Counted from the first letter of the stretch, positions 4,701 through 43,866 are shown. The stretch: DNA of 45,034 nt from Protoeuglena noctilucae (GCA_958009085.1 OY253691.1:1-45034), one strand, 5' to 3'. Program-made: numbers and translations. The notes: generated by a model not told the origin, from the letters alone.

Positions 4701-11481
<6,781 letters not shown>

Positions 11482-14432: not shown

Positions 14433-14966
14433 ATGATTTCTCGATTTCTTTTTCTTTCTATTTGTTTTCTCGTATCTAGTTTTGTTACTCTATGTCTTTC
14501 TTTTTCTATAAGACCTTTTTGGATCTCCTATTTTGTTATTCATAGACTTCCACTGGAAAGACTTCATCTCTATCAAACTACAGAATCCACTAGCTTTGGT
14601 TTTTGTATTTGTCTCAGGATTCTAAGCAGTCTACCTCTCTTTTTTTATTATACTAAGCAATTTCAACCTTCTAGTTGGCTAGCCAATAGGAAACGTGGTC
14701 CTAGAATCAAAATTTCTGTATTTCTTGGTAGGTGGAGAAGAAGGTTTTTCCTCATTCTTTGGCTATTTGAATTTCAAAGAGATCTGTCAATTGAAGAAGA
14801 TCTTTGGTGGAGCAATCAAGAAACTTCATGGAATGCTTCTTTTCCTCTGCAAAGTCAAGGTAAGTACTCTGGAGTTTTTTTTAGAGAACTAACTCCGAAT
14901 AGAATTTTTTTTAGAAGGGTTTTTAGATTTCTTTTTTCGGTTATCATTTCTATTTTCCTCTTCTTA
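14433..14966 (+). CDS. tatC: Divergent, short TatC-like membrane protein (TTA stop)
   Basis: Hydrophobic ORF with weak resemblance to mitochondrial TatC N-terminal half; no TTR for 177 codons, then TTA at a repeat boundary. Confidence 0.4.
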
Positions 14967-15207
14967 CTTACCTACCTATGCATTCCTTACTTACTTATGC
15001 GAAGCATAAGTAAGTAAGGACAGCATAGCAACCAAAACCTTCGGTTTTGGTAGGTAAATAGAGCAGCCTATCAAGCAAGTAAGCGAGTTACCCTCTTCGA
15101 GTGTATTTCATTCCGCTTCGAGTTCTCAGCCCTTTACCCAAACGTGTAACTTATTTAATTTTCTTTCAGTTAGTAAGTAACTGAAAGAAAATTAAATAAT
15201 TGATTTT

Positions 15208-15279
15208 AGGTTTCTAGCTCAGTGGTAGAGCAGTGGACTTTTAATCCATTGGTCATGGGTTCAAATCCCATGAAACCTA
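15208..15279 (+). tRNA. trnK: tRNA-Lys(UUU)
   Basis: Acceptor aggtttc/gaaacct, loop ct-TTT-aa. Confidence 0.92.
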
Positions 15280-16233
15280 AAAAACTTTTGGTTATCTCTA
15301 TAAAACAAAGGTAAACCAGAAAATATCTTGAGAAAATACCTCTTCAAATCCAAGCCTATACCAACATTTTATTAACAAGTTCTAATTTGTTCATTGGCAG
15401 AAGATAAATAAAATACTTACTAACCTTTCTTTCAGTTACCTCTAATCACTTACTTATGCTTCGCATCATAACAACCTAAACCGAAGGTTTAGGTAGGTAA
15501 ATGCTCTTTTAGTAACTCCTTCAGAGAATGTAGAGAAGAGGGTAACTCGCTTACATACTAACCTCTCTGAAAGAGAGCAACCTATGCAGTCCTTACCTAT
15601 GTTTCACATAGGTAAGGAATGCATAAGTAGGTAAGAAGAGGGCAAAATAATTCTTACCTCTATTCACTTACCTATGCTTCGCATAGGTAAGTGAATGAAA
15701 CTTTGTTTAGGTAAGAAAAATGATTTTCAATAATCAAAAAGAAAAAATTTGAAGGCTAAAAAGTGGTTGCTGCAATGCATTTTTCCTATGTTTTCCTTTA
15801 TATAGTATATGATTCACTAACCTATGCTTCGCATAGGTTAGTGAATAGAGAGATTCAAAAATACATATTAAATGAACTCATAAAACTACTAGAAAATATG
15901 GTAACATAAAGACAATAAAATGTAGATATTGAAAACTAGTGAGACAACCTTGGTTAAAGTAAAAAAACATACATTTATTTTCAGAAAATTGGATAAATGT
16001 GCAGACAGATAAATACCAGAAACAACTAATTAAATAAAGAGAAAAAAGGTTAGTGATATAGTCTAATTTTTTTTTTATTATTGAAGATGAGGTTATTCCC
16101 TGTACTTATTTATCACGTTTAAAGAAACATTCCATTTACCTATGCTTCGCATAGGTAGGTAAGTAACATTTCCAAGATTATCATTCACTTACCTATGCTT
16201 CGCATAGGTAAGTGAATAGAGAGATGTAACGAA

Positions 16234-16304
16234 TGGGATGTAGCCAAGTGGCAAGGCACAGGGTTTTGGTCCCTCGATCGAAGGTTCGATTCCTTCCATC
16301 CCAG
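16234..16304 (+). tRNA. trnQ: tRNA-Gln(UUG)
   Basis: Acceptor tgggatg/catccca, loop tt-TTG-gt. Confidence 0.92.
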
Positions 16305-16470
16305 TTGACTTCAGATTCATTTTTTTAAACTAGACTTTGTTTGATTCACTAATTAACCTCTCTTTAAGAGAGGTTAATTAGTGAATAGAGGTAATACGTA
16401 TGTCGAAGTGAAAATGAACCAGATTTGGTTACCTATGCTTGGCATAGATTGCCTCTACCAGGTAAAACAG

Positions 16471-16542
16471 GCACCATTCGTCTATCGGCAAGGACGTTGC
16501 CCTTTCACGGCAAAAAGGCGGGTTCAATTCCCGCATGGCGCA
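16471..16542 (+). tRNA. trnE: tRNA-Glu(UUC)
   Basis: Anticodon stem ttgcc/ggcaa, loop ct-TTC-ac; one acceptor mismatch. Confidence 0.9.
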
Positions 16543-16788
16543 TATTTAGATTTTACTATTTTGCAAATCCATCCTTTTCATTCACTTACCTATGCTTCGT
16601 TAACTTATGCTTTGCATAAGTAAGTTAGTGATTAGAGGTTTGGTTTCTTTCTAATCACTAACTTACTAACCTATGCTTTGCATAGGTTAGTAAGTTAGTG
16701 AATGATCTTTGTTTCATTGAGATAATGAAATTTCGTTCCTTATTTGTTTAACAACTATTTAACAATTATGTATAGGATATAGGATAAC

Positions 16789-16873
16789 AACTAAAACTCT
16801 TTACCTACCTATGCTTCGCTAACCTAAACTTTGTTTAGGTTAGCGAAGCATAGGTAGGTAAAGAGTTTTAGTT
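16789..16873. repeat. Perfect nested palindrome, 41-bp arms with 3-nt loop (example of the dispersed family)
   Basis: aactaaaactctttacctacctatgcttcgctaacctaaac-ttt-reverse complement. Confidence 0.9.
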
Positions 16874-16917
16874 ACTACAATGTATTATTATTTTTTTTTT
16901 TATGAAAAAAAGACAGG

Positions 16918-17890: not shown

Positions 17891-17893
17891 AAG

Positions 17894-19997: not shown

Positions 19998-22900
19998 GTG
20001 CGCTAGAGTACTGTGAATATCTTTTCCTTTCTGAATGATGAAGTTTATGTTTCTCATTCGAAGAAAGGCACCTAAAACTGAGTTTTGGAGGTGTAAGGCT
20101 GTCACCCAACGGGATCTGGTAACGGATTATGTTGAAGCGGTGAGACCATGTCAACCTGCGGAGAAACCTTGTATCCAAAAAAGTTGGCTAGCTAGGGATT
20201 CTAAGGCTACACTAAGAAACCTGATACCAAATGATCGGATGTCCAAATCCCGAAAGTCAGCAAGGTTTAAGGCTTTCGTCAGGAGTGTCTTCTTTACTCT
20301 CGCCAAAAGAAGGCTGTTCAGTTCTCCTGTGGTCAACTCCAACCGGAGTGGCTTCGATGGAAAGATCATTTCTTTTTTCTTTTCTTGTCCTATGCTAAGC
20401 ATAGGAAGAAAGCTATCAGAGAGAGAATGCAGATGTATCCAAAGAAGATTTGGCAGGGGCCTAAGGAATCAGCAAAGAATTCACGGAAATCTAGGAAGCC
20501 CTCATTGGCTTTCTAAGGGATTCTCTGAAAAAGAATCTCATCTAAGAAAGCCTCGGTCGAAAGACTATGAGGGTGTCGGAGGAGGCGTAGTAGGTATCGG
20601 ATCTGAGAAATCGATCCGGCTTGAAGCTTCTGGTTACCAGAATGGTAACGCATTCAAGCGCCGAAGGACCTCCAGGTGGAATTCGAGAGTCTGGGTTCGT
20701 GGAAATACTCCTAGGACAGGTCGAAATTTTACTTCTAAGAACTCGGTTCCTAGAATGAAAAGCATTCAGACTTCGTCTTCGGAACTTTCACTCGCAGCTC
20801 TACGCCACAGAAATGAACAATCCCCTGGTCGTAAAAATCTTTCTGTAATTCAAACTATTAGAGAGGAAGCTACTCTCATTCTTGCGTATGAGCTTCTTAA
20901 ATCGAAACCTGGAAATCTAACTCCAGGTTTTCCTATGCGATCCTCGGTAACTCTGGGCGGACTTACCCTCTTCGAGCGTAAACGAGTTACCCTCCCATGG
21001 ATTCGGGAGACCCAAAAACAACTTCTTCTAGGAACTTACAAGTTTCCTAAAAGACGCCGAAAATGGATTCCGAAATCGAATGACGCGGGGAACCAGAATT
21101 CAGATTCACCTTGGGGGGAAAAACTCGTCCAGAAAGCAATCCAACTCACCTTTGAACAAATTTTTGAACCCATATTTCTTCCCTCATCTCATGGTTTTCG
21201 TCCAGGAAAGGGGTGTCATACGGCACTTAGAAATGTGGCTGGTCAATGGAAAGGAACAGATTGGGTGATTCAAGCAGACATTTCCAAATGTTTTGATACG
21301 ATTTGCCACTCTACACTTCTAAATCTACTTGACAAGCATGTGAGATGTAACAAAACTCGAGGGCTCGTAAAACGAGCTCTCAAAACGGGTTGGATTGAAA
21401 TCGGAGGGATCGCTAGATCTAAAACACAGGGAATTCCTCAAGCTTCGGTTCTAAGTCCTATTCTTTATAATGTGTATCTCCACCAGCTGGATCTTTTCAT
21501 GGATCAACTGTCCAAAGAGTTTGACAAGGGATCAACGAAGAAGATGTCCCCTCGTTATAAAAAGGTTTACGATCAAATAAAGAAGGCATTTGCCGAAAAA
21601 GATATCTCCCTCGGGAAACAGCTACGTTCAGAGCTTTTCCAAATTCCTTACAGCGATCGGAATTCTCATGGAGTAATTCATGTCAAATATGTTCGTTATA
21701 GAGATGACTTCATTGTGGGAATCACGGGACCTTATAAACTGGCTAGTCTGGTTCAACAAAAGATCACCGAATTTCTTAAAGATCAACTTTCTCTGACTAT
21801 GAATGAAAGCAAAACCAAGATTGTTAACTTCCATTCGGAAACCGTTCGCTTTCTTGGAGCCGACATTCGTAGAGAGAAAACACTGATTCGCACCCGAAAA
21901 ATGGGAAATACCATGACCAAAAAGCGGGTGGCAGGGCGTCCTCAAATGTTCGCTCCGATGATAGAACTCTACGACAAACTAGTTCAGAATGGGATCGCCG
22001 TCTGGCAAACCCATCCCGATGGCAAACGTGAACTTGTCTCGGTTCGATGGACCAAAGCCATCAACCTAGATCATCACCAAATTGTCCATAAGTATAACTG
22101 GATTCATCGGGGAGTTCTCAACTATTATACGTTTAGATCGAATCGAAGCAGATTTCACCATTATGGCAAAATCCTTCTTTTCTCTTGTGCCCTCACTCTC
22201 AAGAGCAAGATGAAGCTTCCATCCATGAGAAGAAGGTTTAAGCGGTTCGGGAAAAATCTTAAATGCCCTCACACGGGGGTAAGTTTTTATTTTCCCCCGA
22301 ATCTTAAAACCCTTCCGTATCCTAGCAAGTTTCTCAAATCTTCTGGAAATCCAAATCTGGAACAACTGTTTCAACTTTGGAATTCTAAGCTCACGAAGAG
22401 CTCATTTGGTAGAGGATGTTGTATTTGTGTTGTGGCTCTCAGGAAAACGTGGAGATACATCATGTACGCAAAATTCGTGACCTTCCGAAAATCAGAAGCT
22501 CATGGTTTACTACCCAGATGGCGGCTCTGAATCGGAAACAGCTCCCGGTATGCTCGCTTCATCATAAGAAGATTCATCAGGGCGCTCTCACCGAAGAAGA
22601 AAAGCGAATCTGGACGGAACGTCTACGCACCTGGGTTAGCTCTCAAAAAAAAGGGGAGTTCTAACTCTCTAGAAGACAGGAAAGATGAAATTACGAAATT
22701 AGGGATGAGTTAATTTTCTGGGGTGGTAAGAATTCTTACTGGCAAGCCGTATGACGGGAAATTGTCACGTACGGTTTAGAGGGCGGTTTGTATTTCTAAA
22801 CGGATATCTCTTTCTACTTAGACTTCGGTGAATTTTTAATTTTTAAAATTTTACTAAGCTTATTACTATTAGGGAATTAAGTAAAGTATAAGGAATGACC

Positions 22901-23944: not shown

Positions 23945-24260
23945 GGTAGCTTTCCGCTGTAGCTTTACGTTTTAACTTTTTCTCATATTTCCCTTTTCTG
24001 CTCTTCTGACCTATGCATTCCTCTATTCACTAACTTACCTCTCTTTCAGAGAGGTAAGTTAGTGAATGATGCTTCGTTAACTTATACAAAGCATAAGTAA
24101 GTAAGTGAATGAAACTTTGTTTAGGTAAGTAAGTTAGTGAATAGAGGAATGCATAGGTGTTACTTAGGTTTCACTTACTTATGCGAAGCATAAGTAAGAA
24201 GAGGGCTAAGATACTTACATTCTCTAAGAGAGAATGTAAGAAGAGGTGAGTACATATCCG

Positions 24261-24641
24261 ATGACACTTTATATTAATTCGCAAAGAAATCTACGTGTGA
24301 GAGATAACTCAGGCGTTAAAAGAATAAAAAGACTTCTTCCAATACCACAAACCAATTCTAAACTGAAAACAAGAGTAATTACCGAACTAAAAACTCAAAG
24401 CCAACAAAGTCGAAAAAACCTGGAAACAGGAAAACTTGTCCGATTTCTTCTTGTCAATACCCGAGCAAGAATGAAAGGTAAAAATGGAGTACTTCGCCGT
24501 AATCAAACTACGACCGTAGTGGTAGTAAATGAAACTCGAAATCTTAGCTCAGCTACTCTGACAGGAACTCGCATTTCAACAAAACTTCCCAAATCTATGT
24601 ACGGAAAAGGACGAAGAATTAGGAAACGAGTAACTGACTTA
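24261..24641 (+). CDS. rpl14: Ribosomal protein L14 (TTA stop)
   Basis: LRV(AGA)DNSG and GTRI motifs. Confidence 0.82.
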
Positions 24642-24727
24642 TGCTGTCCTATGCTATGCATAGGACAGCATAAGTCAGTAAGTGCTTTGTGAGCTAATTA
24701 GTTGATTTTTGTGCCGATACGATTATT

Positions 24728-24824
24728 TTACTAACCTTTCTTTCAGTTACTTACCTCTATTCACTTACCTATGCAAAGCATAGGTAAGTGAATAGAGGTA
24801 AGTAACTGAAAGAAAGGTTAGTAA
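24728..24824. repeat. Perfect palindrome, 47-bp arms with 3-nt loop
   Basis: ttactaacctttctttcagttacttacctctattcacttacctatgc-aaa-reverse complement. Confidence 0.9.
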
Positions 24825-24863
24825 GTAAAACGAACCATGCGTATCAGTAGAAATAAAAAAAAG

Positions 24864-25853
24864 ATGAGAACTTATACACTAACCCCAAGACTTAGATTTA
24901 GAAGAAGTCTTAGAAAAAGACTAGGAGTAGCCGTTCCTCTTCTGGTAAGAGTTAGAATGAGAACTCTGAGAGAACGAAAAGTAATGGCTTCTATGCAACG
25001 GCGAAAAGGGCCTAATCAAGTCGGACCTCTAGGTCTGCTGCAACCTTTTGCTGATGGAGCTAAACTCGCGGTAAAAGAGCCAGTTCTTCCAACCACTTCT
25101 TCCCTAAGAATGTTTCTTTTTGCCCCAAGACTGAGTTTCCTGCTAAGAATTGTTTTTTGGTCTGTACTTCCCGTGAGACCAGGCAGAGTTCTCACAGATA
25201 CTCCTTTTGGTCTTCTATTTCTATTTAGAATTTCTTCACTAGGAGTGTACGGAATTATGATGGCAGGGTGGGCCAGTCAATCCCAATATGCTTTTCTAGG
25301 TTGTCTTCGAAGTGCGGCGCAAATGATTTCTTATGAGGTCAGAATTGGACTGGTAGTTCTCACCGTGATTCTACCAACCCAAACTCTAAATCTGAGTGAA
25401 ATCGTTGAAAAACAAACCACCCTTTGGAATAGAATTCCTTTTGCTCCGATTAGAATTCTTTTTTTCATCTGTTGTCTTGCCGAAACCAACCGAGCGCCTT
25501 TTGATCTTCCAGAGGCGGAAGCAGAGCTCGTGGCAGGATATAATGTGGAATATTCCTCGCTAGGATTTGCACTCTTTTTTCTAGGAGAATATAGAAATAT
25601 GATTAGAATGAGTACTCTATGTTCCATTCTTTTTCTAGGAGGATGGCTTCCTCCATTTGCCATTGCACCATCTACATGGATTCCAAGAAGAAGATGGACT
25701 GGGCTGAAGACTTCTCTTTTTCTATTTTTTTATATCTGGGTTCGTAGATGTGTCCCACGATATCGATACGATAACCTGATGCGACTAGGTTGGAAAGTGT
25801 TTCTTCCACTAAGACTAGCAAGATTTTGGAGATCAAGAAGACTAACCTGGTTA
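24864..25853 (+). CDS. nad1: NADH dehydrogenase subunit 1 (TTA stop; alternative start 24837)
   Basis: [42 protein letters not shown]. Confidence 0.94.
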
Positions 25854-26167
25854 CCTAGAATCACCGCTGGTGAATGATGTGAAACATCATTCACTTACTA
25901 ACTTACCTATGCTTTGCATAGCAACCTCTAATCACCGCTGGTGAATGAAACCTTCGGTTTAGTTACCTTTCTTTCAGAAAGGTAAGTAAGTTAGTGAATA
26001 GAGGTAACTCATTCACTTACCTACCAAAACCTTCGGTTTTGGTAGCTCTCTTCCTATGCTTAGCATAGGTTATTAGGTGAATAGAGGTAAACGTTACATA
26101 ACCATTTTTATATTTTAGAAAATAATTTTTTTTTACTTAGAGCAAAGTTCTTTGCTCTAAGCAACTA

Positions 26168-26240
26168 GAGCAAATAGCTCAGTGGTTAGAGCGTTCGGCT
26201 GATAACCGAAAGGTCAGAAGTTCGAATCTTCTTTTGCTCA
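26168..26240 (+). tRNA. trnI: tRNA-Ile(GAU)
   Basis: Acceptor gagcaaa/tttgctc, loop ct-GAT-aa. Confidence 0.92.
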
Positions 26241-26330
26241 AACTTGAGATAACTCGTTTCACTCGAAAAGATACAAATTCTGGAACTTATAAATAACATA
26301 GTTAGTAAGAAATCTAAAAAAAAATAGGTT

Positions 26331-26417
26331 GGAAGAATGGCCGAGTGGTCGAAGGCGCCGGTTTTGAACACCGGTAATTTGGTAACAAATTCGTGGGTTC
26401 GAATCCTACTTTTTCCG
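26331..26417 (+). tRNA. trnS: tRNA-Ser(UGA)
   Basis: Stem ccggt/accgg, loop tt-TGA-ac, long variable arm. Confidence 0.92.
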
Positions 26418-26561
26418 TAGACAGGGAGCTAGTTTAAAGTTTAAACAATTTCCATACTCTTTTCTATGAAGATTTTTTTTTTTTACCTACCTAAACCGAA
26501 AGTTTAGGTAGGTAAAAAAAGCAGAGGAACTCGAAGAGGGCAACTCGCTTACACTCGAAGA

Positions 26562-26633
26562 GGGTAATTAGCTCAGTGGTAGAGCAAATCCCTTACAAGG
26601 ATGAGGTCAGAGGTTCAAATCCTTTATTACCTA
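26562..26633 (+). tRNA. trnV: tRNA-Val(UAC)
   Basis: Acceptor gggtaat/attacct, loop ct-TAC-aa. Confidence 0.9.
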
Positions 26634-26941
26634 CAACAAAACAGGTGATTTTCTATTCTTTTAAAAAGGACAGAAAAACTCGAGAAAAGTAATTCGCTTA
26701 CAGACTTACTTACCTCTATTCACTTACTTACCTCTCTTTCAGAGAGGTAAGTAAGTGAATGAAACCTTTGGTTTAGTTACCTTTTTTTCAAAAAAGTAAG
26801 TGATTAAAAAAAGGGCGAAGAACTCGAAGAGGAATGAAATACACTCGAAGAGGGTAACTCGCTTGCATACTAACCTCTCTTTCAGAGAGCAACCTATGCT
26901 GTCCTTCACATAGGTAAGGAATGCATAGGTAGGTAAGAAGA

Positions 26942-27013
26942 GGGCACATAGCTCAGTGGTAGAGCAATGGTCTTCTAATCCACAGGTCAAGGGTTCAAAT
27001 CCCTTTGTGTCCA
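26942..27013 (+). tRNA. trnA: tRNA(UCU) with alanine identity, inferred tRNA-Ala reading AGA/AGG
   Basis: Loop ct-TCT-aa; acceptor GGGCACA/TGTGTCC-A gives G1:C72, G2:C71, G3:U70, A73. Confidence 0.88.
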
Positions 27014-30852: not shown

Positions 30853-30854
30853 AA

Positions 30855-31487: not shown

Positions 31488-31827
31488 CTGGTATTTCTTT
31501 TCTTACCTCTAATCACTTACTTACTTATGCTTTGCATAAGTTAGCGAAGCATAAGTAACTAAACCGAAGGTTTCATTCACTTACTAACTAACTTACTTAC
31601 CTATGCAAAGCATAGGTAAGTTAGCAAAGCATAGCTACCTAAACCTTCGGTTTAGGTAGGTAAGTTAGTGATTAGAGGTTGCTATGCATTCGTATGCGAA
31701 GCATCATTCACTTACCTATGCTTTGCATAGGTTAGTGATTATAGGTAGGTGAGTAAATCAACACTTGATTCACTATCTTTTTTTTTTCATTATTTATCTG
31801 GTAGATAATCAACAAAAAAGTATTAAA

Positions 31828-31980
31828 ATGCCTCAACTAGATATTATGAGTTTTATGCCACTTTGGTGGAGAAGAAGAGTAGCTACAGTACTAAATTATC
31901 AAACCGTGATTCAAATTTTTCTCCCTTTCTCAATTCGGTCAAAAAAAGTTCGTAATATTTTTAGTACCTCTAGAAAATAG
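31828..31980 (+). CDS. atp8: ATP synthase subunit 8
   Basis: N-terminal MPQLD; the apparent RRR becomes a hydrophobic AAA under AGA=Ala. Confidence 0.88.
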   Translation: MPQLDIMSFMPLWWRRRVATVLNYQTVIQIFLPFSIRSKKVRNIFSTSRK

Positions 31981-32057
31981 CATTCACTAACTAACTTACT
32001 TACCTATGCTTTGCATAGGTAAGTAAGTTAGTTAGTAAATAGAGGTAACCAAACGAA

Positions 32058-33230
32058 ATGACGGTTCTAACGAATCCAACACAAAGTCCAATTTTTAACG
32101 AACCGGGCTTTAAGCTACTACGCGAGCATCTGGTGGATTATCCTACAGGTGAAAACCTCAATGATCTTTGGGGATTTGGAAGTCTAGCTGGAATTTGCCT
32201 TGTAATTCAAATTTTTACTGGAATTTTTCTAAGAATGCACTATCCCGCATCTACAACTCTAGCTTTTGAGGCGGTGGAGCAGCACATTATGCGAGATGTG
32301 AGTTATGGTTGGCTTCTTCGTTATTTTCATGCTAACGGAGCCAGTTTTTTTTTCATTGTAGTTTACAGACACATGTTTCGAGCTTTTCTGTTTTCTAGCT
32401 ATACTGCTCCGCGAGAACTTGTATGGCTATCAGGAATTGCACTTCTTCTTGTCATGATTATTACCGCTTTTCTTGGCTATGTGCTTCCATGGGGACAAAT
32501 GAGTTTTTGGGGAGCGACAGTAATTACTAGCCTAGCTAGTGCCATTCCTCTAGCCGGTCAATCCATTGTCGAGTGGCTATGGGGAGGATTTTCTGTTGAT
32601 AATGCTACACTGAATCGATTTTTCAGACTTCATTTTGTTCTTCCATTTAGAATTGCTGGTCTAGCTATTCTTCACCTTGCCGCTCTTCACCAATATGGAT
32701 CCACCAATCCGCTTGGTACTATTGTGGAAAGAAGAAAAGTAACTCTTTATCCTTATTATTATGTAAAAGATCTGGTAGCTTGGATTAGATTTAGAATGGC
32801 TTTTAGTTATTTTGTGTTCTTCGAACCAAATGCAATGGGCCACCCGGATAATTCAATTCCTGCGAATCCTCTTTCAACTCCAGCACATATTCAACCCGAA
32901 TGGTATTTTCTTCCTGTGTATGCCATCCTACGAAGTCTTCCTGACAAACTTGGAGGGGTAGTTAGAATTGCTAGGGTTTTTGCTAGTATGAGATTTCTTC
33001 CTTTTGATCAAGTTGGAGTGTTTCGTTTTGGAGGATTCCGAATTTATCATAAAAGACTATTTAGAAGATTTGTTGGAACTTGTGTATTTCTGGGATGGAT
33101 TGGTGCCAAACCTGTGGAAAGTCCTTTTGTAGAATTTGGCCAACTTTCTGGTAGACTCTTCTTTCTGTATTTCCCTCTTCAAATGAAAATGGCTCAACTT
33201 GAACGAGAATATCAAGAATCTCTGGTTTTA
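32058..33230 (+). CDS. cob: Apocytochrome b (TTA stop)
   Basis: [32 protein letters not shown]. Confidence 0.96.
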
Positions 33231-33426
33231 CTTACCTCTATTTACTTACTTACCTACCTAAACCTTCGGTTTAGGTTGCTATGATTTGTTAACCTCTATT
33301 CACCGCTGGTGAATGAAACTTTGTTTAGGTAAGTAAGTAAGTTAGTGAATAGAGGTAAGTACAAGCTATACAAGTAAAATAGCAACCTAAACCAAAGGTT
33401 TAGGTAGTATGGTATTTAAAAAAAAT

Positions 33427-33498
33427 GGTGTTCATAGCTTAACGGTAAAGCATCGGATTGTGGATCCGGCGAAAAGAGTTCAAGTCTCTTTGGGCGCC
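33427..33498 (+). tRNA. trnH: tRNA-His(GUG)
   Basis: Loop tt-GTG-ga, encoded G-1 with C73. Confidence 0.9.
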
Positions 33499-33672
33499 CT
33501 GGTTACCTCTATTCACCTACCTAAACCTTCGGTTTAGGTTGTTATGCTGTCCTTACTTACCTATGTTTCACATAGGTAACTAAACTTTGTTTAGGTTAGC
33601 GAAGCATTTACCTCTCTGAAAGAGCATTCACCAGCGGTGATTATAGGTAAGTAAGTTAGTGAATAATCTATC

Positions 33673-34962
33673 ATGACTTTTGTATTTTCATTTTCAGAAT
33701 ATTTTCTCAGTGTGAGAGCCATGTATCTTCTTTTTTCTAGCGAATCTCGCGATTCTTACAATCTCTCGAAACAAAGAAGGATTTATAGAAGAAGAAGAAG
33801 CTTTCTAAGTCTTCTTGATCTTAGAAATAGGGCTTGTGTTACAAGTCTGCTTCGCACAAGAATGGCCAGAAGAGCAAGATGGATTCTGTTCCTCCATGCA
33901 TCAACTGCCAAAACCAAAGATCGATCATTTAGATTTCTGATTCTAAGAAGCACCAGAGCATCCATGTTTATGCTTCGAACAGAAAGTCTTCTATCTATTT
34001 ATCTAAGAATTGAACTTCAAAGAATCTGTAGATATGTTCTTAGAAGACGAGAAAATCAAAGAGCTGTGGAAGCAAGGCTAAAATATCTAATTCTCGGAGC
34101 ATTTAGATCCGGAATTCTTCTGTTTGGTCTAGCACTCATTTATAGAAGATCAGGGACGCTTCGTATTGGCTGCTTCGCAACAACTATTTATGAAAGTGAA
34201 CTTTTTACCGCTGGAATGACTCTTCTAAGAAGAGGTCTTTTTTTCAAAGCTGGAAGAAGACCATTTCATTTTTGGGTTCCAGACGTATATCAAGGGATTC
34301 CTACTCTTTCAAGAGCCTATTTTAGAACTGTAAGCAAAAGAAGAATGCTAGGTCTTCTGCTTATTCTTCCAATTTCAACAACAAGAATCTGGAGAGTGAG
34401 AAGAAGATCAATGCTTCTAGGAGTGCTTGGAGCTATTCCTCAATTTCATCTGAAACGTCTGTATAGATACAGTTCGATTGCACAAGTTGGATATATCTGT
34501 CTTGGCCTACTATCTGTAGAAAAAATGAGTGGAGTTAGAACCAGAGCTACCGCAGGCGTAATTAGATATCTTCTCATTTATATTAGAACGACTCTTCACA
34601 GATTTAGCGTGTTTGCCGTTCCTTCGTATACCACATTTGCTCATATGCAAGAATCTTCTTATGTTGGTATGAAAGTTCAAATGAGACTAGTCTTTTTTTC
34701 TCTTGCGGGAATTCCCCCTCTTCTAGGATTTAGGGCCAAAGCCAGAGTTCTTCAAAATGCAAGTTATGTAGGAGAAATGAGAAGAGTGAGGCTAGCCCTT
34801 CTGGCGAGTAGTATTGGAGTATTTTATAGTCTCAAAATGATTCAAACCATGTTTTACAGGCCGGTTTCTAAAACTATGAGAAGAGAAATCCCAAGAGTTC
34901 AAAGAACTTTTCTTTGCAGACCTGTGATTTTTCTAACAACTGGCCTATTTGGTCTTATCTTA
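33673..34962 (+). CDS. nad2: NADH dehydrogenase subunit 2 (TTA stop)
   Basis: EA(AGG)LKYLILG, PFHFWVPDVYQG, YSSIAQVGY, FSLAGIPPLLGF. Confidence 0.92.
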
Positions 34963-35357
34963 GAAAGTCTTCATTTGATTGTATTTTGGTTTTTACCTCT
35001 ATTCACCGCTGGTGAATGAAACTTTGTTTAGGTCAATATTATTTTTTTTTACCTAAACTTTGTTTCATTCACTAATTTACTTACCTATGCTTTGCATAGG
35101 TAAGTAAGTTAGTGATTAGAGGTAAAGAGCTGAACGTGTATTTTATTCTTTTTTACATTCTGGTAAAAGTCATACTAACTTATGCTGTCCTTACCTATGT
35201 GAAACATAATTCACCAGCGGTGATTATAGGTAAGGAATGCATAAGTTAGTAATAAAATGCACTTGCTTTTTACATCATAGAAAATAAATTTTCATTCACT
35301 TACTAACTTACTTACCTTTCTTTCAGAAAGGTAAGTAAGTTAGTGAATAGAGGCCAA

Positions 35358-35430
35358 CAGAACGTAGCGCAGTTGGAAGCGCGTTAGCTTTGGGAGCTAA
35401 AGGTCGTAGGTTCAAACCCTACCGTTTTGA
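35358..35430 (+). tRNA. trnP: tRNA-Pro(UGG)
   Basis: Acceptor cagaacg/cgttttg, loop tt-TGG-ga. Confidence 0.92.
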
Positions 35431-35436
35431 GATCGA

Positions 35437-37195
35437 AAACAAATGGTTTTGTCCTGGCTACGGAAGAAAGCGTGTCTGAAGCTTTACACATGCGAGTTAT
35501 TCTTTCAACGAATGAAAGAAAGCGTACGGGTGAGTAAGAAAAAGAGATAAGAAGTTTTATCTAGACATCTTGTTTAGGTAAAAAAAAATAAGGATTGAAT
35601 TGGTAAACCAATAATAATTGAAAAGACAGAATTTCTTTTACTTAAACTTTGTTTAAGTAACTAAAATGTTGTATTCTTCTTTTTTCTTTTTCGGTATTAG
35701 GAAACTTTATTGTTATATGCTGTCCTTACCTATGTTTGACATAGGTAACTAAACTTCGTTTAGGTTAGGAATGCATAGGAAGCAACATAAAGAACCAATG
35801 ATGCCAAGCAGGCTTGAAAGAGTGACCTGTCACATCGGGAATGAAAAGGACCCGAACTTCGCAGAAGGCAGCAGTGGGGAATCTTGGGCTATGGGCGTTT
35901 ACGCTTGACTCAGCGAACAGACTTGATGGGGACGGTATGAAACTGTTAACATCTGAACTAGCTGTTCAGAAAATTTTGTTACTTACTTATGCTTCGTTAA
36001 CCTAAACTTTGTTTAGCAATGCTTCGCATTGGTAAGTAACAAAATTTTCTAAGCGGTTAAATATAGTCCTGGCCAAAACTCGTGCCAGCAGCCGCGGTAA
36101 TACGGGTGGGGCAAGCTTTTTCCATAAGAAATCGGTGTTAAGCAGGGAAAGACGGGAGTTGCATAAGCAGTAGAATAAAGTTTTTGAAAATGCAAAAAGC
36201 TTCTTTTGTTGGCAACTCCTAGAGTCAAAGAGATGTTTTTGGAACTCTCACAGAAAGGATACAATCTGACGATTGTGGGAAGAAGGCCGGAATCGAAAGA
36301 GAAATTCAAACTTTGAACTGACGTTGATTCCTGAAAGCGTGGGAAGCAAAACGGATTAGAGACCCGTGTAGTCCACGCCCTCAACTATAGAGGCCCTAGC
36401 GTAGGAAAAAAACTTCTATGCAGTCTTTTACGAAGAGTCTCTCACCAGCAAACTACTCTCGCAAGAGAAAAATGCAAAGGACTTGGCGGGATTCCTCACA
36501 GTCGGTGGACGATGCTCTTTAATCGGAGACAACGCCGAGAACCTTACCACTTCTTGAATAATTGTTTTATCTACCTATGCCATGCATAGGTAGGTACACA
36601 GAGATATAATTACAGGTACTACATGGCCACCACAAGCTCGTGCGGCAACGTGTCAGGTTTATTCCTCGGAACGAGCGAACCGCTTTTTTTCTGATATCTT
36701 TTTTCATATCAGAAAACACATCTTTATAACCAAAAAAGAGGAAGAAAGTCGGAGGGTAGGTCGTCACGATCCTTATGAAGTGGGCTAGAGGCGTCGGACA
36801 GTGATAAGGACACAAGACTCTTGTTATTGACTTTTTTTTACCTATGCATTCCTTACTAACTTATGCTTCGCATAAGTTAGTAAGGACAGCATAGGTAAAT
36901 AAATGAGTAAAACAAAAAACGAGAATTCTTTAAAGCTTATCCCGGTACGGATCACTCTCTGAAACTTGGGAGTGTGAAGGTGGAATCGTAAGTAAACGGA
37001 GAAAAGTACGCTCGGTTGAACAGGTTCTGGGAGTCTGCACACACCGCCCATCACGGGCTGGAAAATTACATGGCTGGAAGATATTTCTCGATTTTTCTTT
37101 TTGTTTAAGAAGAAAAGTCGGGCTATCGAATTCTATGGATTGACTGGTCCTAAGTTGTAACAAGGTAGTCGTAGGGGAACCTGCGGCTGGAAGGA
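35437..37195 (+). rRNA. rns: SSU rRNA (ends approximate)
   Basis: tcctggct, acacatgc, gtgccagcagccgcggtaatac, cacacaccgccc, gtaacaaggtag..gaacctgcggctgga. Confidence 0.93.
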
Positions 37196-37363
37196 AAAAT
37201 TAGATCAATTCTGAACTTTCTCACCTCTATTTATTTACCTCTAATCACTAACTTACCTGCCTAAACCTTCGGTTTAGGCAGGTAAGTTAGTGATTAGAAG
37301 TACGATTTTGGTTTTATGTTTCAGAAACGGTGAATTTGTGTGTGTTTTTTTTAACGAAAAATT

Positions 37364-37435
37364 GGGGATTTAGTTTAGTGGTAGAATGCTAATTTTGCAA
37401 GTTAGATGTCATTGGTTCAATTCCAATAATCTCCA
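37364..37435 (+). tRNA. trnA: tRNA-Ala(UGC)
   Basis: Acceptor ggggatt/aatctcc with G3:U70, loop tt-TGC-aa. Confidence 0.92.
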
Positions 37436-37690
37436 AAAATTTTTTTAAATTTAGGAATTATTTTCCGCCATTCAATTCTGTGCTTACCTCTATTCACTAA
37501 CTTACCTACCTAAACCGAAGGTTTAGGTAGGTAAGTTAGTGAATAGAGCAACCTATGCTGTCCTTACTTACTTATGCGAAGCATAAGTAAGTAAGGAATA
37601 CATAGGTAGGTAACGGAAAGAAAGGTTAACGAAACATGGCTAAAATTTGTTTCATTCACCAGCGGTGAATAGAGCTAAGTACTATTTCTA

Positions 37691-39004
37691 ATGTTTAACA
37701 GAACAGAACAATTTCAACTGATTCATATTCTTCCTATTTATAAAGATTCTCTAGATCTTTCAATTACAAACAGACTAGTTTATCTAATTAGAACCGCTAG
37801 AATTCTACGATTTTTTCTGCCAAAGCAAAATACGATTCTTCCCTCTTCAGCCAATCTAAGACTGGAACAAATTAGATCTTTTATTCAAGGAATGACAGAA
37901 GATCAACTGGGAAAAGAGAAATCAAGACCATTTGTTCCACTTGTACTTACAGTTTTCCTAATGCTTCTTGGAAGAAATCTACTAGGAATGATTCCTAATA
38001 CTTTTCCTTTCATTCTGAGAATTAGAAGATATCTAAGAAGAACTAATCTATTTCACTGGTTTTTTCGTTTCGGTTTCGGAGGTCTTGTTCCTAGGTCAAA
38101 TCAAAACCTTATGAAATCAGAAAATCAACAAATTCAAAGCTGGAATTTTTTTCCAGAAAATTTTAGCTCAAGGTTTGAAGCGACTATGATTTGGATTCAA
38201 CTTCAATTCCAAACAGTAAGACCGAAAGCTACTCTTTCGTCTCTCTATTCACCGCTGGTGAATGGAGGTCAAACAATTCATAGACTTCCTGTAGGGAAAT
38301 CTGTGAGTACGTCGTCCTATGCTACGCATAGGAAACTAAGAGAAACAAACCATAGCGCAACCACTGCTTTTGTAAATGCTATGGAATATCCTCATAAAGA
38401 AAAACTTTCTTACCTCTCTTTCGGAGAGGTAACTACTTCGAGTTATCTTGGCATGAAATCTTCAACAAAAAAAAACTCGTGGAATATTAAATCAGTAAGC
38501 GATTTCAAAGCTTATAGAGTTCAAAGATCTCTTTTTTTTGTAAGACTTGGTTTTTTTAGCACTGCTCCTAGAAGGTTTACTCCAACAAGCCATCTTAGAT
38601 TTACTTTTAGGATTTCTAGTTCACTGTTTGTGGGTCTAATTTATTATAGCCTTGAACGTCATGGTCTTCACTTCTTTTCTCTATTTTTTCCAACCGGAAT
38701 TCCATTTGCACTTGCTCCTTTTATTGTAATGCTGGAAAGAATTTCATTTTTTTTTCGACCAGTCAGTCTGGGGATTCGACTTAGAGCTAACATGACAGCG
38801 GGTCATATTCTACTACATACTCTAAGAGGATTTGTGGGGCAGTTTCTTGGAAGAAAAGGAATCATCTTCTGTATTCTAGGGAGAAGAGGAGGGAGAATTC
38901 TAGAAGGAGTTTTCCTACTTGAAACAGGGGTGTGTTTTCTACAGGCTTATGTATTTACCGTACTGTTCACTATTTATCTAAAAGATGCAGAAGTTCTTCA
39001 CTAG
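37691..39004 (+). CDS. atp6: ATP synthase subunit a (6) with ~190-codon in-frame insertion
   Basis: NLLGMIP...FTPTSH, RPVSLGIRL(AGA)ANMTAGH, LQAYVF. Confidence 0.92.
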   Translation: MFNRTEQFQLIHILPIYKDSLDLSITNRLVYLIRTARILRFFLPKQNTILPSSANLRLEQIRSFIQGMTEDQLGKEKSRPFVPLVLTVFLMLLGRNLLGMIPNTFPFILRIRRYLRRTNLFHWFFRFGFGGLVPRSNQNLMKSENQQIQSWNFFPENFSSRFEATMIWIQLQFQTVRPKATLSSLYSPLVNGGQTIHRLPVGKSVSTSSYATHRKLRETNHSATTAFVNAMEYPHKEKLSYLSFGEVTTSSYLGMKSSTKKNSWNIKSVSDFKAYRVQRSLFFVRLGFFSTAPRRFTPTSHLRFTFRISSSLFVGLIYYSLERHGLHFFSLFFPTGIPFALAPFIVMLERISFFFRPVSLGIRLRANMTAGHILLHTLRGFVGQFLGRKGIIFCILGRRGGRILEGVFLLETGVCFLQAYVFTVLFTIYLKDAEVLH

Positions 39005-40457
39005 CTTCCAATCTAGGAATGAAATCCACGAAAAAAGAAATTACTCGCAGGGGAAAGGTTTTGATGTTCCTCTTCGAGTTCTTAGCCCTCTTCGAGTACG
39101 TCCTCCTCTTAGATGCAAACAAACGTACGAACGATCTTCCTATGCTGAACAGCATAGGACTAAAACTCTCATTGTGGTAAGAATGAGATTTCCTCTTCTT
39201 TGGAGAAGAAATCATCAAGTTGGAGCGATCACCATCTTCGGTCAACCTATTCTTCTGGATGGCCTGAGACATTGGTTTCTACTTCTGACAAGTTTTCTAA
39301 TGCCGTTTACTTTTCTGATTGGAGTGAATCGAGAACAGTATTCTATACTTGCCAGAAATCTTTTTCTGGTGGAAAGAACTCTTCTTAGAAGATTTGTAGT
39401 TACTGAACTTCTAACCTTTTATATTCTTTTCGAAAGAGTGCTTATGCCTCTTTTTCTTCTAGTAATTGTGTATGGATCGCGCGCTCGTCGAATTCGAGCT
39501 GCATTTCAGTTTTTTCTTTATACAGTAGTATTTTCTCTTTTTCTACTTGTAAGATGTGTCTGGCTTCAAGCTTACTTTGGTACCACCGATTGGCGGGTTC
39601 TAAGCTGTCAGACTTTTTCAGGTTTTCAAGAAGGACTTCTGTTTCTTGCTCTTTTTACAAGACTAGCAGTAAAAGTACCAATGATGCCTCTTCACCTATG
39701 GCTTCCCGAAGCACACACTGAAGCTTCCACAGAAGGATCGGTGATTCTTGCAGGAGTTCTTCTGAAACTAGGAACCTATGGAATTCTACGTTTCCTTCTT
39801 CCCATGTTTTCGTGGGCTAGAGCCCAAAGAGCTCCTCTAGCCATCACTCTTAGTATTCTGAGAGTTCTCAGAGCAGCTCTCACCTGTATTCGTCAAGCGG
39901 ATCTTAAGAAACTCATTGCCTATTCGTCAGTTTCGCATATGGGACTTGTAACTCTTGGTCTGTTTAGAGGAAATCTTTCAGGACAAGTCGGTAGAACTTT
40001 TCTCATGCTGACTCATGGAATTGTTAGTCCAGCCCTATTTCTTAGAGTTGGTCTTCTCTATGAACGATTTGGAACTCGAATTCTTGATGTTTACGGCGGG
40101 GTGGCTCTAAGAATGCCTCTGTTTAGAATTTTTTGGGCTATTTCACTCTTCTCTAATATGGCTATTCCAGGAACCGCAAGTTTTCCTGCTGAATTTCTTA
40201 TTCTTCTCGGATCGTTTCAAGAAGCTAAACTAGTTACTAGTCTAAGGGCTATTGGAATGGTCCTAACGGCGGTGTATAGAGTTCGTCTGTATACTCTTGT
40301 ACTCGGCGGAGGTCTGAAACCACACATGACAGCTGCTGCTGATCTTAATCGTCGTGAAAGTTTTCTGAGTGTTCCTTTTATCATTCTCATGCTTTGGAGA
40401 GGTATGAGACCAATGTCTGTTCTAGAATCGCTAGAAACTATTCTTTATTTTTTTTAA
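38985..40457 (+). CDS. nad4: NADH dehydrogenase subunit 4 (start uncertain: 38985 or 39183)
   Basis: KVPMMPLHLWLPEAHTEASTEGSVILAGVLLKLGTYG, IAYSSVSHMG. Confidence 0.92.
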   Translation: MQKFFTSFQSRNEIHEKRNYSQGKGFDVPLRVLSPLRVRPPLRCKQTYERSSYAEQHRTKTLIVVRMRFPLLWRRNHQVGAITIFGQPILLDGLRHWFLLLTSFLMPFTFLIGVNREQYSILARNLFLVERTLLRRFVVTELLTFYILFERVLMPLFLLVIVYGSRARRIRAAFQFFLYTVVFSLFLLVRCVWLQAYFGTTDWRVLSCQTFSGFQEGLLFLALFTRLAVKVPMMPLHLWLPEAHTEASTEGSVILAGVLLKLGTYGILRFLLPMFSWARAQRAPLAITLSILRVLRAALTCIRQADLKKLIAYSSVSHMGLVTLGLFRGNLSGQVGRTFLMLTHGIVSPALFLRVGLLYERFGTRILDVYGGVALRMPLFRIFWAISLFSNMAIPGTASFPAEFLILLGSFQEAKLVTSLRAIGMVLTAVYRVRLYTLVLGGGLKPHMTAAADLNRRESFLSVPFIILMLWRGMRPMSVLESLETILYFF

Positions 40458-40622
40458 AAAAAAAGCTACTGTATTCCTTACCTAAACAAAGTTTAGTAAC
40501 CTATGTTTCACATTAACCTATGTTTCACATAGCGTAGCATAGGACAATCTCTATTTACTTAGCTTTCTTGTCCTATGCATAGCATAAGAAAGAAAGCTAA
40601 GTAAGTAACGAAATCACCGCAG

Positions 40623-41306
40623 GTGACTGTTTCTTTTCTAAGTAGACTATTCAGAGCACTTACTCTTAGAGCGAGGGTTAGGCTTGTATTTGCTACTCAT
40701 CCTGTAAGTGCAGTAATTTCTCTGGTTCAAGTTTTTGTAGCTAGAGGGGCTTTTCTTAGAACTCTAGGTCTTGATTTTTTCACATTTACTTACATTGTTA
40801 TTTATGTAGGAGCAATTGCGGTTCTTTTTCTCTTTGTTATTATGCTTCTAGATACGAGATCTGAAACCCTCTTCGAGAGCAAGCGAGTTTTCCTCTCCGA
40901 GAATTTCGTGAGTCGAAATTCTCTAGAACTAAATAAAAACTCATATTTTTCTTCTACTATCAGTAATCACTCCTCTGGAAGAATGAGTTTCGTTTTTAGA
41001 AGAAGGAGAAGAAGATTTTTTCTAAGACTGGTATCCGGATTTTCTATTTCTTCCGAACTAGAATATAATGCTGTTGAAGCTTGGAATCTTGAGGAAATCG
41101 ATGTCCTGTCAGTAGGACCAGCACTGGGATTTCATCTATACACAACCCATATTCTCGATTTTCTGCTGAGAGCCATGCTTCTTCTTGTGGCAATTGTTGG
41201 GTCAATTCAGATTTCATTTTTTGGAATGACATTTCAACAAAAGAGAAAATCGCAAACTATTTTTCAGCAAATGGCACGTCAAGAGAGCAAAACCATTCGT
41301 TTTTTG
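40623..41306 (+). CDS. nad6: NADH dehydrogenase subunit 6 (GTG start, TTG stop)
   Basis: HPVSAVISL, IYVGAIAVLFLFVIM, LLVAIVGSI. Confidence 0.88.
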
Positions 41307-41465
41307 TTTTTACTTAAACTTTGTTTAGTAACCTCTAATCACTTACCTATGCAAAGCATAGCAACCTAAACCGAAGGTTTAGGTAGGTAAGTTAGTGAAT
41401 AATGCTGTCCTCTATTCACTTACTTATGCATTCCTATGCTATGCATAGGACAGCATAAGTAAGTA

Positions 41466-41547
41466 AGGGATATGACCGAGTGGTCAAAGGTGAGGGATTG
41501 TAACTCCCTTGAAATTTTCTTCGTGGGTTCGAATCCCGCTGTCCCTA
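41466..41547 (+). tRNA. trnY: tRNA-Tyr(GUA)
   Basis: Stem aggga/tccct, loop tt-GTA-ac, long variable arm. Confidence 0.92.
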
Positions 41548-41885
41548 GAGGAACCCTCTTCGAGTACTTCGTGCTCTTCGAGTTCTTAACCATACATGGT
41601 TATTACTGATTTTTCAAACAAGTAGAAGTTACTTTCGTATAGGGTAATTCACTTACATACTAACTAACTAACCTTTCTTTCAGAAAGGTTAGTAAGAAGA
41701 GGAATAGAATACGGTGTAATATCTATTTACTTACCTACTTAAACCTATGGTTTAGTTACTAACTAACTTACTTACCTATGCTATGTTAACCTAAACTTTG
41801 TTTAGGTAAGTAAGTTAGCGAAGCATCATTCATTTACTTACCTCTCTGAAAGAGAGGTAAGTAAATAAAGACGAATGTCAAAAGG

Positions 41886-41957
41886 TCTTTTCTAGCTCAA
41901 TGGTAGAGCGGCGGACTGTTAATCCGTAGGTTGACGGTTCAATCCCGTCGAAAAGAG
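41886..41957 (+). tRNA. trnN: tRNA-Asn(GUU)
   Basis: Acceptor tcttttc/gaaaaga, loop ct-GTT-aa. Confidence 0.92.
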
Positions 41958-42216
41958 TTTTCCATGAAAAAACACTTGAAAGGACTTATCGCTAGTACGA
42001 GAGGATTGCGATAAAAAAACCACTGGTTTTTCGGCTGTTTTTCCAAAAGCATCGTCGAACAGCTACGTTTTGAAAGGAGAAGAAACGAAGGTTTCGAAAC
42101 CATCCTTAACACAAAGTTTTCTTTTTGTGAAAGATTCTCACATGAATAGGCTGAACGGTTTGGCTATACAAAGTATAGTGAATTTAGCTTGTCAGTACTA
42201 ATTGTCTATTAACTTT
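41958..42216 (+). rRNA. rnl: LSU rRNA 3' fragment, domain VI (3' end approximate)
   Basis: Sarcin-ricin loop AGTACGAGAGGA at 41994-42005 in stem ttatcgc/gcgataa; gaataggct and gtactaat 3'-terminal motifs. Confidence 0.85.
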
Positions 42217-42506
42217 TGTTGTACTTTTAGGTAGGGCGAAGAACTCGAAGAGGAATGAAATACACTCGAAGAGGGCAAATAACTTGAAAAGGGTAACTCG
42301 CTTACATACTTATTTCTATTCACCTGCCTTATCTCTAATCACTAACCTATGCGAAGCATAGGTAAGTGAATGATGTTTCACATAGGTTAGGTAGGCTGCT
42401 ATGCTGTCCTCTATTCACTTACTTACCTATGTTTTGTTTAGGTTAACAAAACATAGGTAAGTAAGTGAATAGAGGTAAAAACCAAATGAAGACTGAAAAA
42501 AGAAAC

Positions 42507-42589
42507 ATGGATATGGCGGAATGGTAGACGTACTAGATTTAGGCTCTAGACTTGAAATAAAGGTGTGGGTTCAAGTCCCACTATCCATA
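42507..42589 (+). tRNA. trnL: tRNA-Leu(UAG)
   Basis: Acceptor atggata/tatccat, loop tt-TAG-gc. Confidence 0.92.
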
Positions 42590-42681
42590 AAAATTATATA
42601 TTATAGAGTGGCCTTACCTCTATTCACTTACTTATGCAAAGCATAAGTAAATGAATAGAGGTAAAATAACTCAAATAAATT

Positions 42682-43428
42682 ATGGACTACGCAATTTGGT
42701 GGCGAAGCACATGGACTTATCTTTTTCAAGACTCAAGATCTCAAATTGCTACTGCAATTACAAATTTTCATTCTGATGTAATGGTAATTATGCTATTTGT
42801 AGTAGGATTTGTACTTTGGATTCTAACTCGAACAAGAATTCTTAGAATGAAAGCTCAACGCACTTACAGAATTACTCACGGTAGAAGAATTGAGATTATC
42901 TGGACTCTTCTTCCAAGACTAGCAGTATCAAGTATTGCTCTACCGTCTTGGACTCTTCTTTATTCAACAGATAGAATTCCAGGAGAAAGAACTAATCCTT
43001 TTGATCTAACCATTAAAGTGACAGGTCGACAATGGTACTGGTGTTACGAATATGGTCTAGATCTAAGAGAAGATGTAGAAAGGCCTAGTTTTGAAAGTTA
43101 TATGACTAGAGAAAGAGATCTCCCACAAGGAGGTCTTCGTCTCCTAGAAGTTGATAATCGAGTGGTTACTCCAAGAAATCGTATGATTCGAGTTCTAGTG
43201 ACTAGAGGCGATGTTATTCATAGTTGGGCAGTACCATCTCTAGGAGTCAAGTGTGACGCTATTCCAGGACGGCTCAATCAAGTGTTTTTTCTTAGAAATC
43301 GAGAAGGTGTTTTTACTGGGCAATGTTCTGAACTTTGTGGAACCTACCACAGATTCATACCAATTGTGGTGGAAAGAATAGGAATGGAGCATGCGCTAGT
43401 GTGGCTTACTGAGAGAATGGATTCGTTA
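42682..43428 (+). CDS. cox2: Cytochrome c oxidase subunit 2 (TTA stop)
   Basis: GRQWYW, RLLEVDN, DVIHSWAVPSLG, GQCSELCG. Confidence 0.95.
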
Positions 43429-43548
43429 GATAGAATGGATTTTGGCACTAGCCTAACCTAAACTTCGTTTAGGTTAGTCAGGTATTCTAGGATAGAACCA
43501 TACCATAACGATTCATCGGAGGACGAGGGGAGCTCGTCGTATGATTCT

Positions 43549-43866
43549 ATGTTTCTAGCCGGGTATCTGGAAATGGCACAATACTATGCTGAGGAGTCAG
43601 CACGACGAGCTGTAGGGCTTCCTCATGCTGAACTAGCCTGGCGGGCGAGGACAGCTGTAACTCATCTGTCACAGCAGCGGCTACATGAGCTAACTGATAT
43701 GCAAGTTAAAGAACTAGTTACTCATGTCGACCTAGCCCTCCGACTGGCGGATCTGGAAGCCTGGGATACCTGGCAAACGATGGCCAATTCTCCCTCGACA
43801 GAGATTAAAGAGGCTAGGAAGGCTTCACTTCAAGGACGGCAACTTCCGCCGCCTGGCAAAAGTTTG
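43549..43866 (+). CDS. Orphan ORF of 105 aa in a GC-richer island (TTG stop)
   Basis: Leu codons are CTN up to TTG at 43864, after which TTA/TTG become frequent. Confidence 0.4.

Follow-up and report, generated by a model that had tools for sequence, protein, structure and literature searches.

The 45,034-bp stretch of Protoeuglena noctilucae DNA analysed here (the whole of it is called the window) raises a question of genetic code: do TTA and TTG, together TTR in DNA or UUR in mRNA, specify leucine in its genes, or do they end translation? A first-pass annotation, made from the sequence alone, had proposed the latter. Our results indicate that UUA and UUG are very probably stop codons and not leucine codons, presumably recognised by mtRF1a, a mitochondrial factor of the release factor 1 (RF1) type that would accept U at the second codon position. 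The support for TTA and TTG as predicted terminators comes from codon statistics, a shift in TTR density along the frames, the repeats that make up the sequence beyond the proposed stops, the C-termini of related proteins, and the tRNA set. UUA and UUG as stops and AGR as alanine have been described for the mitochondria of the Marsupiomonadales (Pedinophyceae) by Barcyte, Zihala and Elias 2025 (PMC12574857).

TTA and TTG in the reading frames

Frames between standard stops were scanned for in-frame TTA and TTG, which were then added to the stops. In the long frames that carry genes, TTR occurred only upstream of the start or within the last 7-36 codons, and nine frames ended at TTR (Table 1), with 7-36 codons between the first TTR and the next standard stop. 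All eight TTR positions named in the first-pass annotation were correct and are the first in-frame TTR of long plus-strand frames. It had missed the ninth, TTA 22507, which precedes a TGA by 7 codons in the reverse-transcriptase/maturase open reading frame (ORF) of the cox3 intron.

The 28 coding segments comprise 8790 in-frame codons, among which we counted 1019 CTN, 0 TTA and 0 TTG. Thus leucine is always CTN, as had been claimed, and not one internal TTR, the observation that had been held to speak against a stop function, was present. The commonest codon in the same set was TTT (n=514), and about 260 TTR were expected from position-specific base frequencies. When these segments were read in the +1 and +2 frames, 564 and 230 TTR appeared, and TTR made up 5.06% of trinucleotides in non-coding DNA. 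Because about 260 were expected and the other frames are rich in TTR, base composition does not explain the absence. Beyond the first TTR, 13 of 145 codons were TTR, compared with none of the 8790 before it (Fisher p = 3e-24). In-frame TGA was likewise absent from the 8790 codons, against 162 TGG.

As a control, we counted TTR in cob genes of unrelated mitochondrial contigs. Thirty were checked of the 80 metagenomic loci matched by cob (52-66% identical), and every one contained 19 to 53 TTR per gene, which ruled out these 30 loci as relatives that use UUR as stops.

TTR terminated 9 of the 26 coding sequences (35%); when the five stop-type trinucleotides were counted in non-coding DNA, 39% of them were TTR. 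The closeness of the two shares is as expected if each gene ends at whichever of five stops comes first. When translated with NCBI table 23 plus TTG as a stop, all 28 ATG-started ORFs of at least 95 amino acids (aa) lay on the plus strand and the identified genes were all intact; table 11 gave 66 ORFs of at least 80 aa, spread over both strands.

Table 1. Positions of the nine genes closed by TTA or TTG and of two tRNA genes that bear on the code
Feature	Position	Strand	Terminal codon or other detail
orf177, lineage-specific hydrophobic ORF, 177 aa	14433..14966	+	TTA 14964-14966, first in-frame TTR
cox3 group II intron reverse-transcriptase/maturase ORF	20035..22509	+	TTA 22507-22509; RVT_1 and Intron_maturas2 matches
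rpl14, 126 aa	24261..24641	+	TTA 24639-24641; L14 Pfam match
nad1, 338 aa	24837..25853	+	TTA 25851-25853
cob, 390 aa	32058..33230	+	TTA 33228-33230
nad2, 429 aa	33673..34962	+	TTA 34960-34962
nad6, probable GTG start	40623..41306	+	TTG 41304-41306
cox2, 248 aa	42682..43428	+	TTA 43426-43428
orf105, orphan ORF, 105 aa	43549..43866	+	TTG 43864-43866, first in-frame TTR after ATG
tRNA with anticodon UCU	26942..27013	+	cloverleaf; alanine identity elements G3:U70 and A73
trnL(UAG), sole leucine tRNA gene	42507..42589	+	anticodon tag, reads CUN; ARAGORN

Protein ends and the tails beyond TTR

To place the protein ends, we counted residues after a conserved anchor (W331 in nad1, L414 in nad2, R225 in nad6) in close relatives. 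In nad1, whose close relatives are 80-85% identical in the alignment, 7 residues separate the anchor from TTA and 15 separate it from TGA; seven of eight relatives have 7-8 residues there and one has 17. The corresponding distances in nad2 are 15 to TTA and 34 to TGA, with 13-15 residues in four of seven relatives and 21-28 in the other three. For nad6 they are 8 to TTG and 29 to TAA; three of seven relatives have 8-9 and the others 12, 15, 16 and 26, and C-termini at the matching position read ..KTIRF, ..KTLRR or ..KTIRWR. Marsupiomonas sp. NIES-1824 has 8, 13 and 9 residues after the nad1, nad2 and nad6 anchors, respectively. Because its mitogenome contains zero TTR (S10 Table of PMC12574857), these ends are set by standard stops.

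For cob and cox2, as for nad1 below, ends in metagenomic homologs were taken from the best-scoring high-scoring segment pair (HSP) of each homolog. Among the 74 usable of 80 cob homologs, 32 ended within 3 residues of position 390 (TTA), compared with 9 that came equally close to position 408 (read-through). Among 28 metagenomic cox2 genes, 13 ended within 3 residues of 248 (TTA) and 3 within 3 of 259, and solved COX2 chains stop 1-4 residues short of the cox2 TTA. Translated with AGR as alanine, rpl14 matched L14 profile positions 2-116 of 122 over residues 5-119 of its 126. This match predicts an end near residue 125, compared with 143 residues after read-through. Homology was uninformative on the ends of orf177, orf105 and the cox3 intron ORF. 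The alignments thus place TTR at the apparent termini of homologs for nad1, nad2 and nad6 (close relatives) and for cob, cox2 and rpl14, in agreement with the earlier suggestion that the first TTR falls where homology ends.

The tails between TTR and the next standard stop had been said to run into repeats, and the base counts bear this out. When a repeat base was defined as one lying in a 12-mer present at least three times in the window, 254 of 462 tail bases (55%) were repeat, compared with 149 of 8610 bases (1.7%) in the nine gene bodies. The 51-nucleotide (nt) tail of orf177 and the nad1 tail are wholly repeat, as is the 54-nt cob tail, which has three TTR inside it. Further TTR occur in the tails of nad2 (three) and nad6 (four), and orf105 has four within 12 codons past TTG 43864. 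The shared 'TAGE*' ending that had been noticed in the nad1 and nad2 read-through products comes in both from one repeat, ACC GCT GGT GAA TGA, of which there is another copy downstream of cob.

The TTR stop itself lay inside a dispersed repeat in five of nine genes (orf177, rpl14, nad1, cob and nad6), compared with 4 of 17 standard stops. More generally, the repeats are short, dispersed and partly palindromic, are rich in CTTA/TAAG periods, and begin about 30 nt or nearer to most gene ends. Eighteen percent of the window lies in 12-mers present at least three times, for example at 4340-4720, 14964-15080 and 33228-33340. Breaks and false joins occur at the dispersed repeats in assemblies of RNA and of DNA alike.

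Such repeats could in principle mark sites at which an mRNA is cut inside a codon, with a standard stop then completed by tailing, as in the T/TA stops of animal mitochondria. Repeats do begin at, or at most 31 nt from, seven of the nine TTR stops. However, the terminal codon is TTA or TTG in every one of the nine frames. No other codon beginning with T is found there, even though TTT is more frequent in the genome than any other codon, and a processing signal does not require TTR to be excluded from gene bodies. Moreover, the stops at 22507, 43426 and 43864 lie outside repeats, two of them with no repeat within 150 nt. We therefore regard 3'-end processing as a very improbable source of these gene ends.

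The repeats may bear on UUR termination in another way. It is possible, though rather unlikely, that dispersed, partly palindromic CTTA/TAAG repeats abutting the 3' ends of genes supply most of the UUR terminators and that their invasion helps to lock in the reassignment. Once UUA was a stop, an element in either orientation could close any frame, with TTA in one arm and TAA in the other, and invading repeats could overwrite ancestral stops and trim C-termini harmlessly. The main text of PMC12574857 contains neither 'palindrom' nor 'dispersed repeat'.

Decoding of UUR and the release factor

ARAGORN found 20 tRNA genes in the window, and trnL(UAG) was the only one for leucine, as the first-pass annotation had noted; a relaxed, intron-allowing run on the window added no Leu(UAA/CAA) tRNA. 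A further tRNA-like sequence at 4202-4297 (+) gave an Rfam tRNA match of 50.6 bits and is not in the default ARAGORN output. In the acceptor, D and T arms it is almost identical to trnI(GAU) (26168-26240). About 21-23 additional nt in the anticodon loop are able to fold into a separate hairpin and leave the anticodon ambiguous. Because its variable region is short, the sequence is not a leucine tRNA; it represents a trnI copy that has been disrupted or else a tRNA of unusual form.

In distant homologs of nad1, alanine was the residue most frequently aligned with AGR codons (39 of 132 cells) and arginine was outside the top six, whereas CGN codons aligned with arginine in 36 of 40 cells. Together with the identity elements of the tRNA with anticodon UCU, this supports the reading of AGR as alanine by that tRNA. 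The window encodes no tRNA for Thr or CGN, and tRNA import must therefore occur.

RNA evidence came from contigs of four RNA libraries from three studies, covering 24200-44000 and thus seven of the nine TTR sites (all except 14964 and 22507). Long pieces free of differences spanned nad1, cob, nad2, nad6, cox2 and orf105, and no differing letter was seen in these contigs at any of the seven TTR sites, that of rpl14 included. The unchanged letters argue against U-to-C editing. The contigs break at repeats and many of their joints lie between repeat copies; we treated these breaks and joints as assembly effects, silent on transcript ends.

A mechanism in keeping with these data and with the literature would run as follows. 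All leucines would be CUN codons read by trnL-UAG, with no mitochondrial tRNA for UUR, and UUR would end translation in the 9 of 26 coding sequences. The sole mitochondrial RF1-type factor, mtRF1a, with the loop after its PxT tripeptide rebuilt, would accept U besides A at the second position and so recognise both UAR and UUR. UUA and UUG would have changed together, as the third position may be either A or G for RF1: an RF1-type factor relaxed at the second position should gain exactly UUA and UUG, and an RF2-type factor only UUA, as in Labyrinthulea.

What has been reported of the factors fits this scheme. According to PMC12574857, mtRF2a is absent from every pedinophyte examined, and UUR stops in Marsupiomonadales are tied to a modified codon-binding region of mtRF1a. 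The same article describes this region as independently modified in Pseudoscourfieldia marina and normal in Pedinomonadales, in which UUR is leucine. Its S7 Table gives a partial mtRF1a of P. noctilucae that keeps PxT as PDT. Comparing the sequences in that table by eye, we read the loop after PDT as IKADKVQTS in P. noctilucae and ETQGRIHTS in Pedinomonas minor. Read-through would end five of the nine genes on TGA (the cox3 intron ORF, rpl14, nad1, cob and nad2), a codon that is otherwise the terminator of a single intron ORF.

The same protein ends would result if UUR were unassigned, with ribosomes that stall for want of a tRNA being freed by a codon-independent rescue factor. The lack of a tRNA gene for UUR fits such a process, TTR stops often stand at the edge of repeats that could mark mRNA 3' ends, and the passages of PMC12574857 consulted give no direct evidence that mtRF1a binds UUR. 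Nevertheless, UUR closes 9 of 26 coding sequences, among them six conserved core genes. One relative closes most of its genes with UUA (14 UUA and 1 UUG against 2 UAA; PMC12574857), and 15 genes ending in UUR against 2 in UAA are hard to square with a slow path. Two lineages with UUR stops have independently acquired an altered mtRF1a loop, and the loop is normal in Pedinomonadales. On balance, stalling and rescue seem improbable to us.

Several points weigh against termination at UUR by an altered mtRF1a. Some close relatives run past the TTR position, namely one of eight for nad1, three of seven for nad2 and four of seven for nad6; these longer relatives are predicted proteins from standard-code gene calls, several of them with Leu at the expected stop position. 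Among nine distant, metagenomic homologs of nad1, seven have ends at most 3 residues from the read-through length and one ends near TTA. Extrapolation from solved plant Nad1 puts the end at about residue 344, and the nad1 TTA stands opposite Leu in four distant homologs (MAFFT). All eight distant homologs of nad2, scored by the HSP reaching furthest into the query, end nearer the standard-stop length. Because tRNA import occurs, the missing UUR tRNA gene is supporting evidence that by itself proves nothing. The RNA contigs drop minority variants, and the RNA libraries may include DNA. Finally, the part played by the release factor is supported by published correlations, and PMC12574857 itself calls for biochemical or proteomic tests. 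We discounted the distant nad1 and nad2 lengths because close relatives show short C-termini and the aligned nad1 segment is poorly conserved.

The distant homologs could also be taken to mean that UUR still specifies leucine but is very rarely used, being either decoded by an imported tRNA or converted to CUR by editing, and that the nine proteins reach the next standard stop. The lengths of distant nad1 and nad2, which are nearer the read-through forms, the four leucines aligned with the nad1 TTA, and the existence of tRNA import in this mitochondrion all point in that direction. This explanation would have to accommodate the absence of TTR from 8790 internal codons against 13 of 145 in the tails, and tails built of repeats that recur in non-coding DNA. 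It would also have to accommodate close relatives that terminate at the TTR position, RNA contigs from three studies with no T-to-C difference at TTR sites, and five of nine read-through forms in need of TGA termination without an RF2. We consider it highly unlikely, and UUR as stop codons remains our preferred reading.

The genome, its other genes and known codes

The window comprises the whole mitochondrial genome of a green alga belonging to the Marsupiomonadales. All of its recognisable genes are on the plus strand, and the GC content is 38.96% from base counts. The protein genes are atp6, atp9, cob, cox1, cox2, cox3, nad1-6, nad4L, rpl14, rpl16 and rps12, besides which there are large and small rRNA genes, several orphan ORFs, and three matches to group II intron domain V. 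Two introns interrupt cox1 and one interrupts cox3, with reverse-transcriptase/maturase ORFs inside introns. We counted 12 UAA, 4 UAG, 1 UGA, 7 UUA and 2 UUG terminators. PMC12574857 lists the P. noctilucae mitogenome with 45,034 bp, 38.96% GC and 20 tRNA genes (Table 2) and with 12 UAA, 4 UAG, 1 UGA, 7 UUA and 2 UUG terminators (S10 Table), and describes its intron pattern, two in cox1 and one in cox3, as unique. Because length, GC content, tRNA number, introns and all five stop counts are equal, we take the window to be that published mitogenome.

Three of the TTR-ended frames deserve comment. The label 'tatC-like' given earlier to the frame at 14433-14966 (orf177) was not sustained: at E <= 1 the table 11 reading matched no Pfam family at all, and the reading with AGR as alanine gave, in place of TatC, only a chance-level match to Competence (E 0.25). 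Searching 1.84 billion representatives, we found only two clear relatives of orf177, P0171 and P0172 (E 9e-13 and 8e-12), and these share a conserved core with it. Neither of the two matched a Pfam family, and none of P0171-P0173 matched TatC. Since the core is common to two metagenomic proteins, orf177 is probably a real lineage-specific gene. The putative protein of orf105 had no Pfam family match in either the table 11 or the AGR-as-alanine reading. Homology of nad6 starts well before its first ATG (40842). The relatives align with the 40605-41306 frame from about GTG 40623, which suggests a non-ATG (GTG) start.

Three other stretches of the plus strand caught our attention. At 31828-31980, between nad3 and cob, lies an unannotated atp8-like ORF of 50 codons that ends in TAG and starts with MPQLD, which we take to be a typical start of ATP8. 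Pfam YMF19 matched it with E 0.077 in table 11 and with E 0.0037 and 18.5 bits when AGR was read as alanine (cut-off 22.6). In a protein atlas, with the table 11 reading, each of its nearest clusters was ATP synthase protein 8, with a score of 0.90 and 189 features in common; it had no match among solved structures. Marsupiomonadales are said to lack atp8 (PMC12574857).

The frame at 2746-4107 is open for 454 codons under the five-stop code except for one TGA at 3121-3123 (..LTGG*GWVG..), and it joins an unannotated ORF of 109 aa to orf313. TGA is otherwise absent from reading frames. The stretch may represent a pair of ORFs, a gene in decay or a site of read-through. The third stretch, an ORF of 100 aa at 44706-45008, had no Pfam match with table 11 or with AGR as alanine. 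Its C-terminal motif is of a kind seen in L6 proteins. From this motif, and by elimination against the 17-gene list of PMC12574857, the ORF is likely rpl6, although it would have only some half of the normal length.

Few changes of the genetic code are as rare as sense-to-stop reassignments, and overlooking them leads to wrong protein ends, false fusions and misannotation. The UUR-stop code of this window is real and had been correctly read, but it was already known for the P. noctilucae mitogenome (October 2025). PMC12574857 was the one article on the mitochondrial code of this species to emerge from the literature searches. A non-standard code was thus correctly recovered by reading raw sequence, and the precedents named at that stage (table 23, Pycnococcus and Marsupiomonadales) agree with PMC12574857 and with the table 23 rule. 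The C-terminal alignments displayed in the parts of that article consulted are of cox2 (Fig 7B legend) and of atp6, nad3 and cox1 (S19), whereas here the P. noctilucae ends of nad1, nad2, nad6, cob and rpl14 were tested. New in this work are these gene-by-gene tests, the comparison of TTR density on either side of the first TTR, the finding that no RNA change is visible at the TTR sites covered by the contigs, and the frequent position of stops inside dispersed repeats.

The code of the window falls within the published marsupiomonadalean code and does not depart from it. Genes have UUR at their ends and never internally, and there is no cognate tRNA; the tRNA-UCU has G3:U70 and A73; and trnW has the anticodon CCA (ARAGORN), with no in-frame TGA. 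Pseudoscourfieldia marina (= Pycnococcus provasolii) mitochondria likewise use both UUR as stops and have unusual mtRF1a mutations in the same region. In contrast to P. noctilucae, in which no TGA is in frame, TGA ends one ORF and AGR is alanine, that independent lineage reads UGA as Trp (PMC12574857). Thraustochytrium and other Labyrinthulea mitochondria (NCBI table 23) share the change of UUA from leucine to stop. There only UUA is affected and TTG stays leucine, whereas here TTG occurs in none of 8790 codons and ends nad6 and orf105. The Labyrinthulea stop is attributed to a Ser204 change in mtRF2a, and mtRF1a is implicated in Marsupiomonadales (PMC12574857). Scenedesmaceae mitochondria (UCA/UCG as stops) and peDinoflagellate plastids (UUA/UCA as stops) resemble the present case in combining sense-to-stop changes with altered organellar release factors. 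They differ in the codons and in the factors (an Arg182 change in mtRF1a, and pRF2, respectively); in P. noctilucae, UCA is an ordinary sense codon with 112 uses (S10 Table of PMC12574857).

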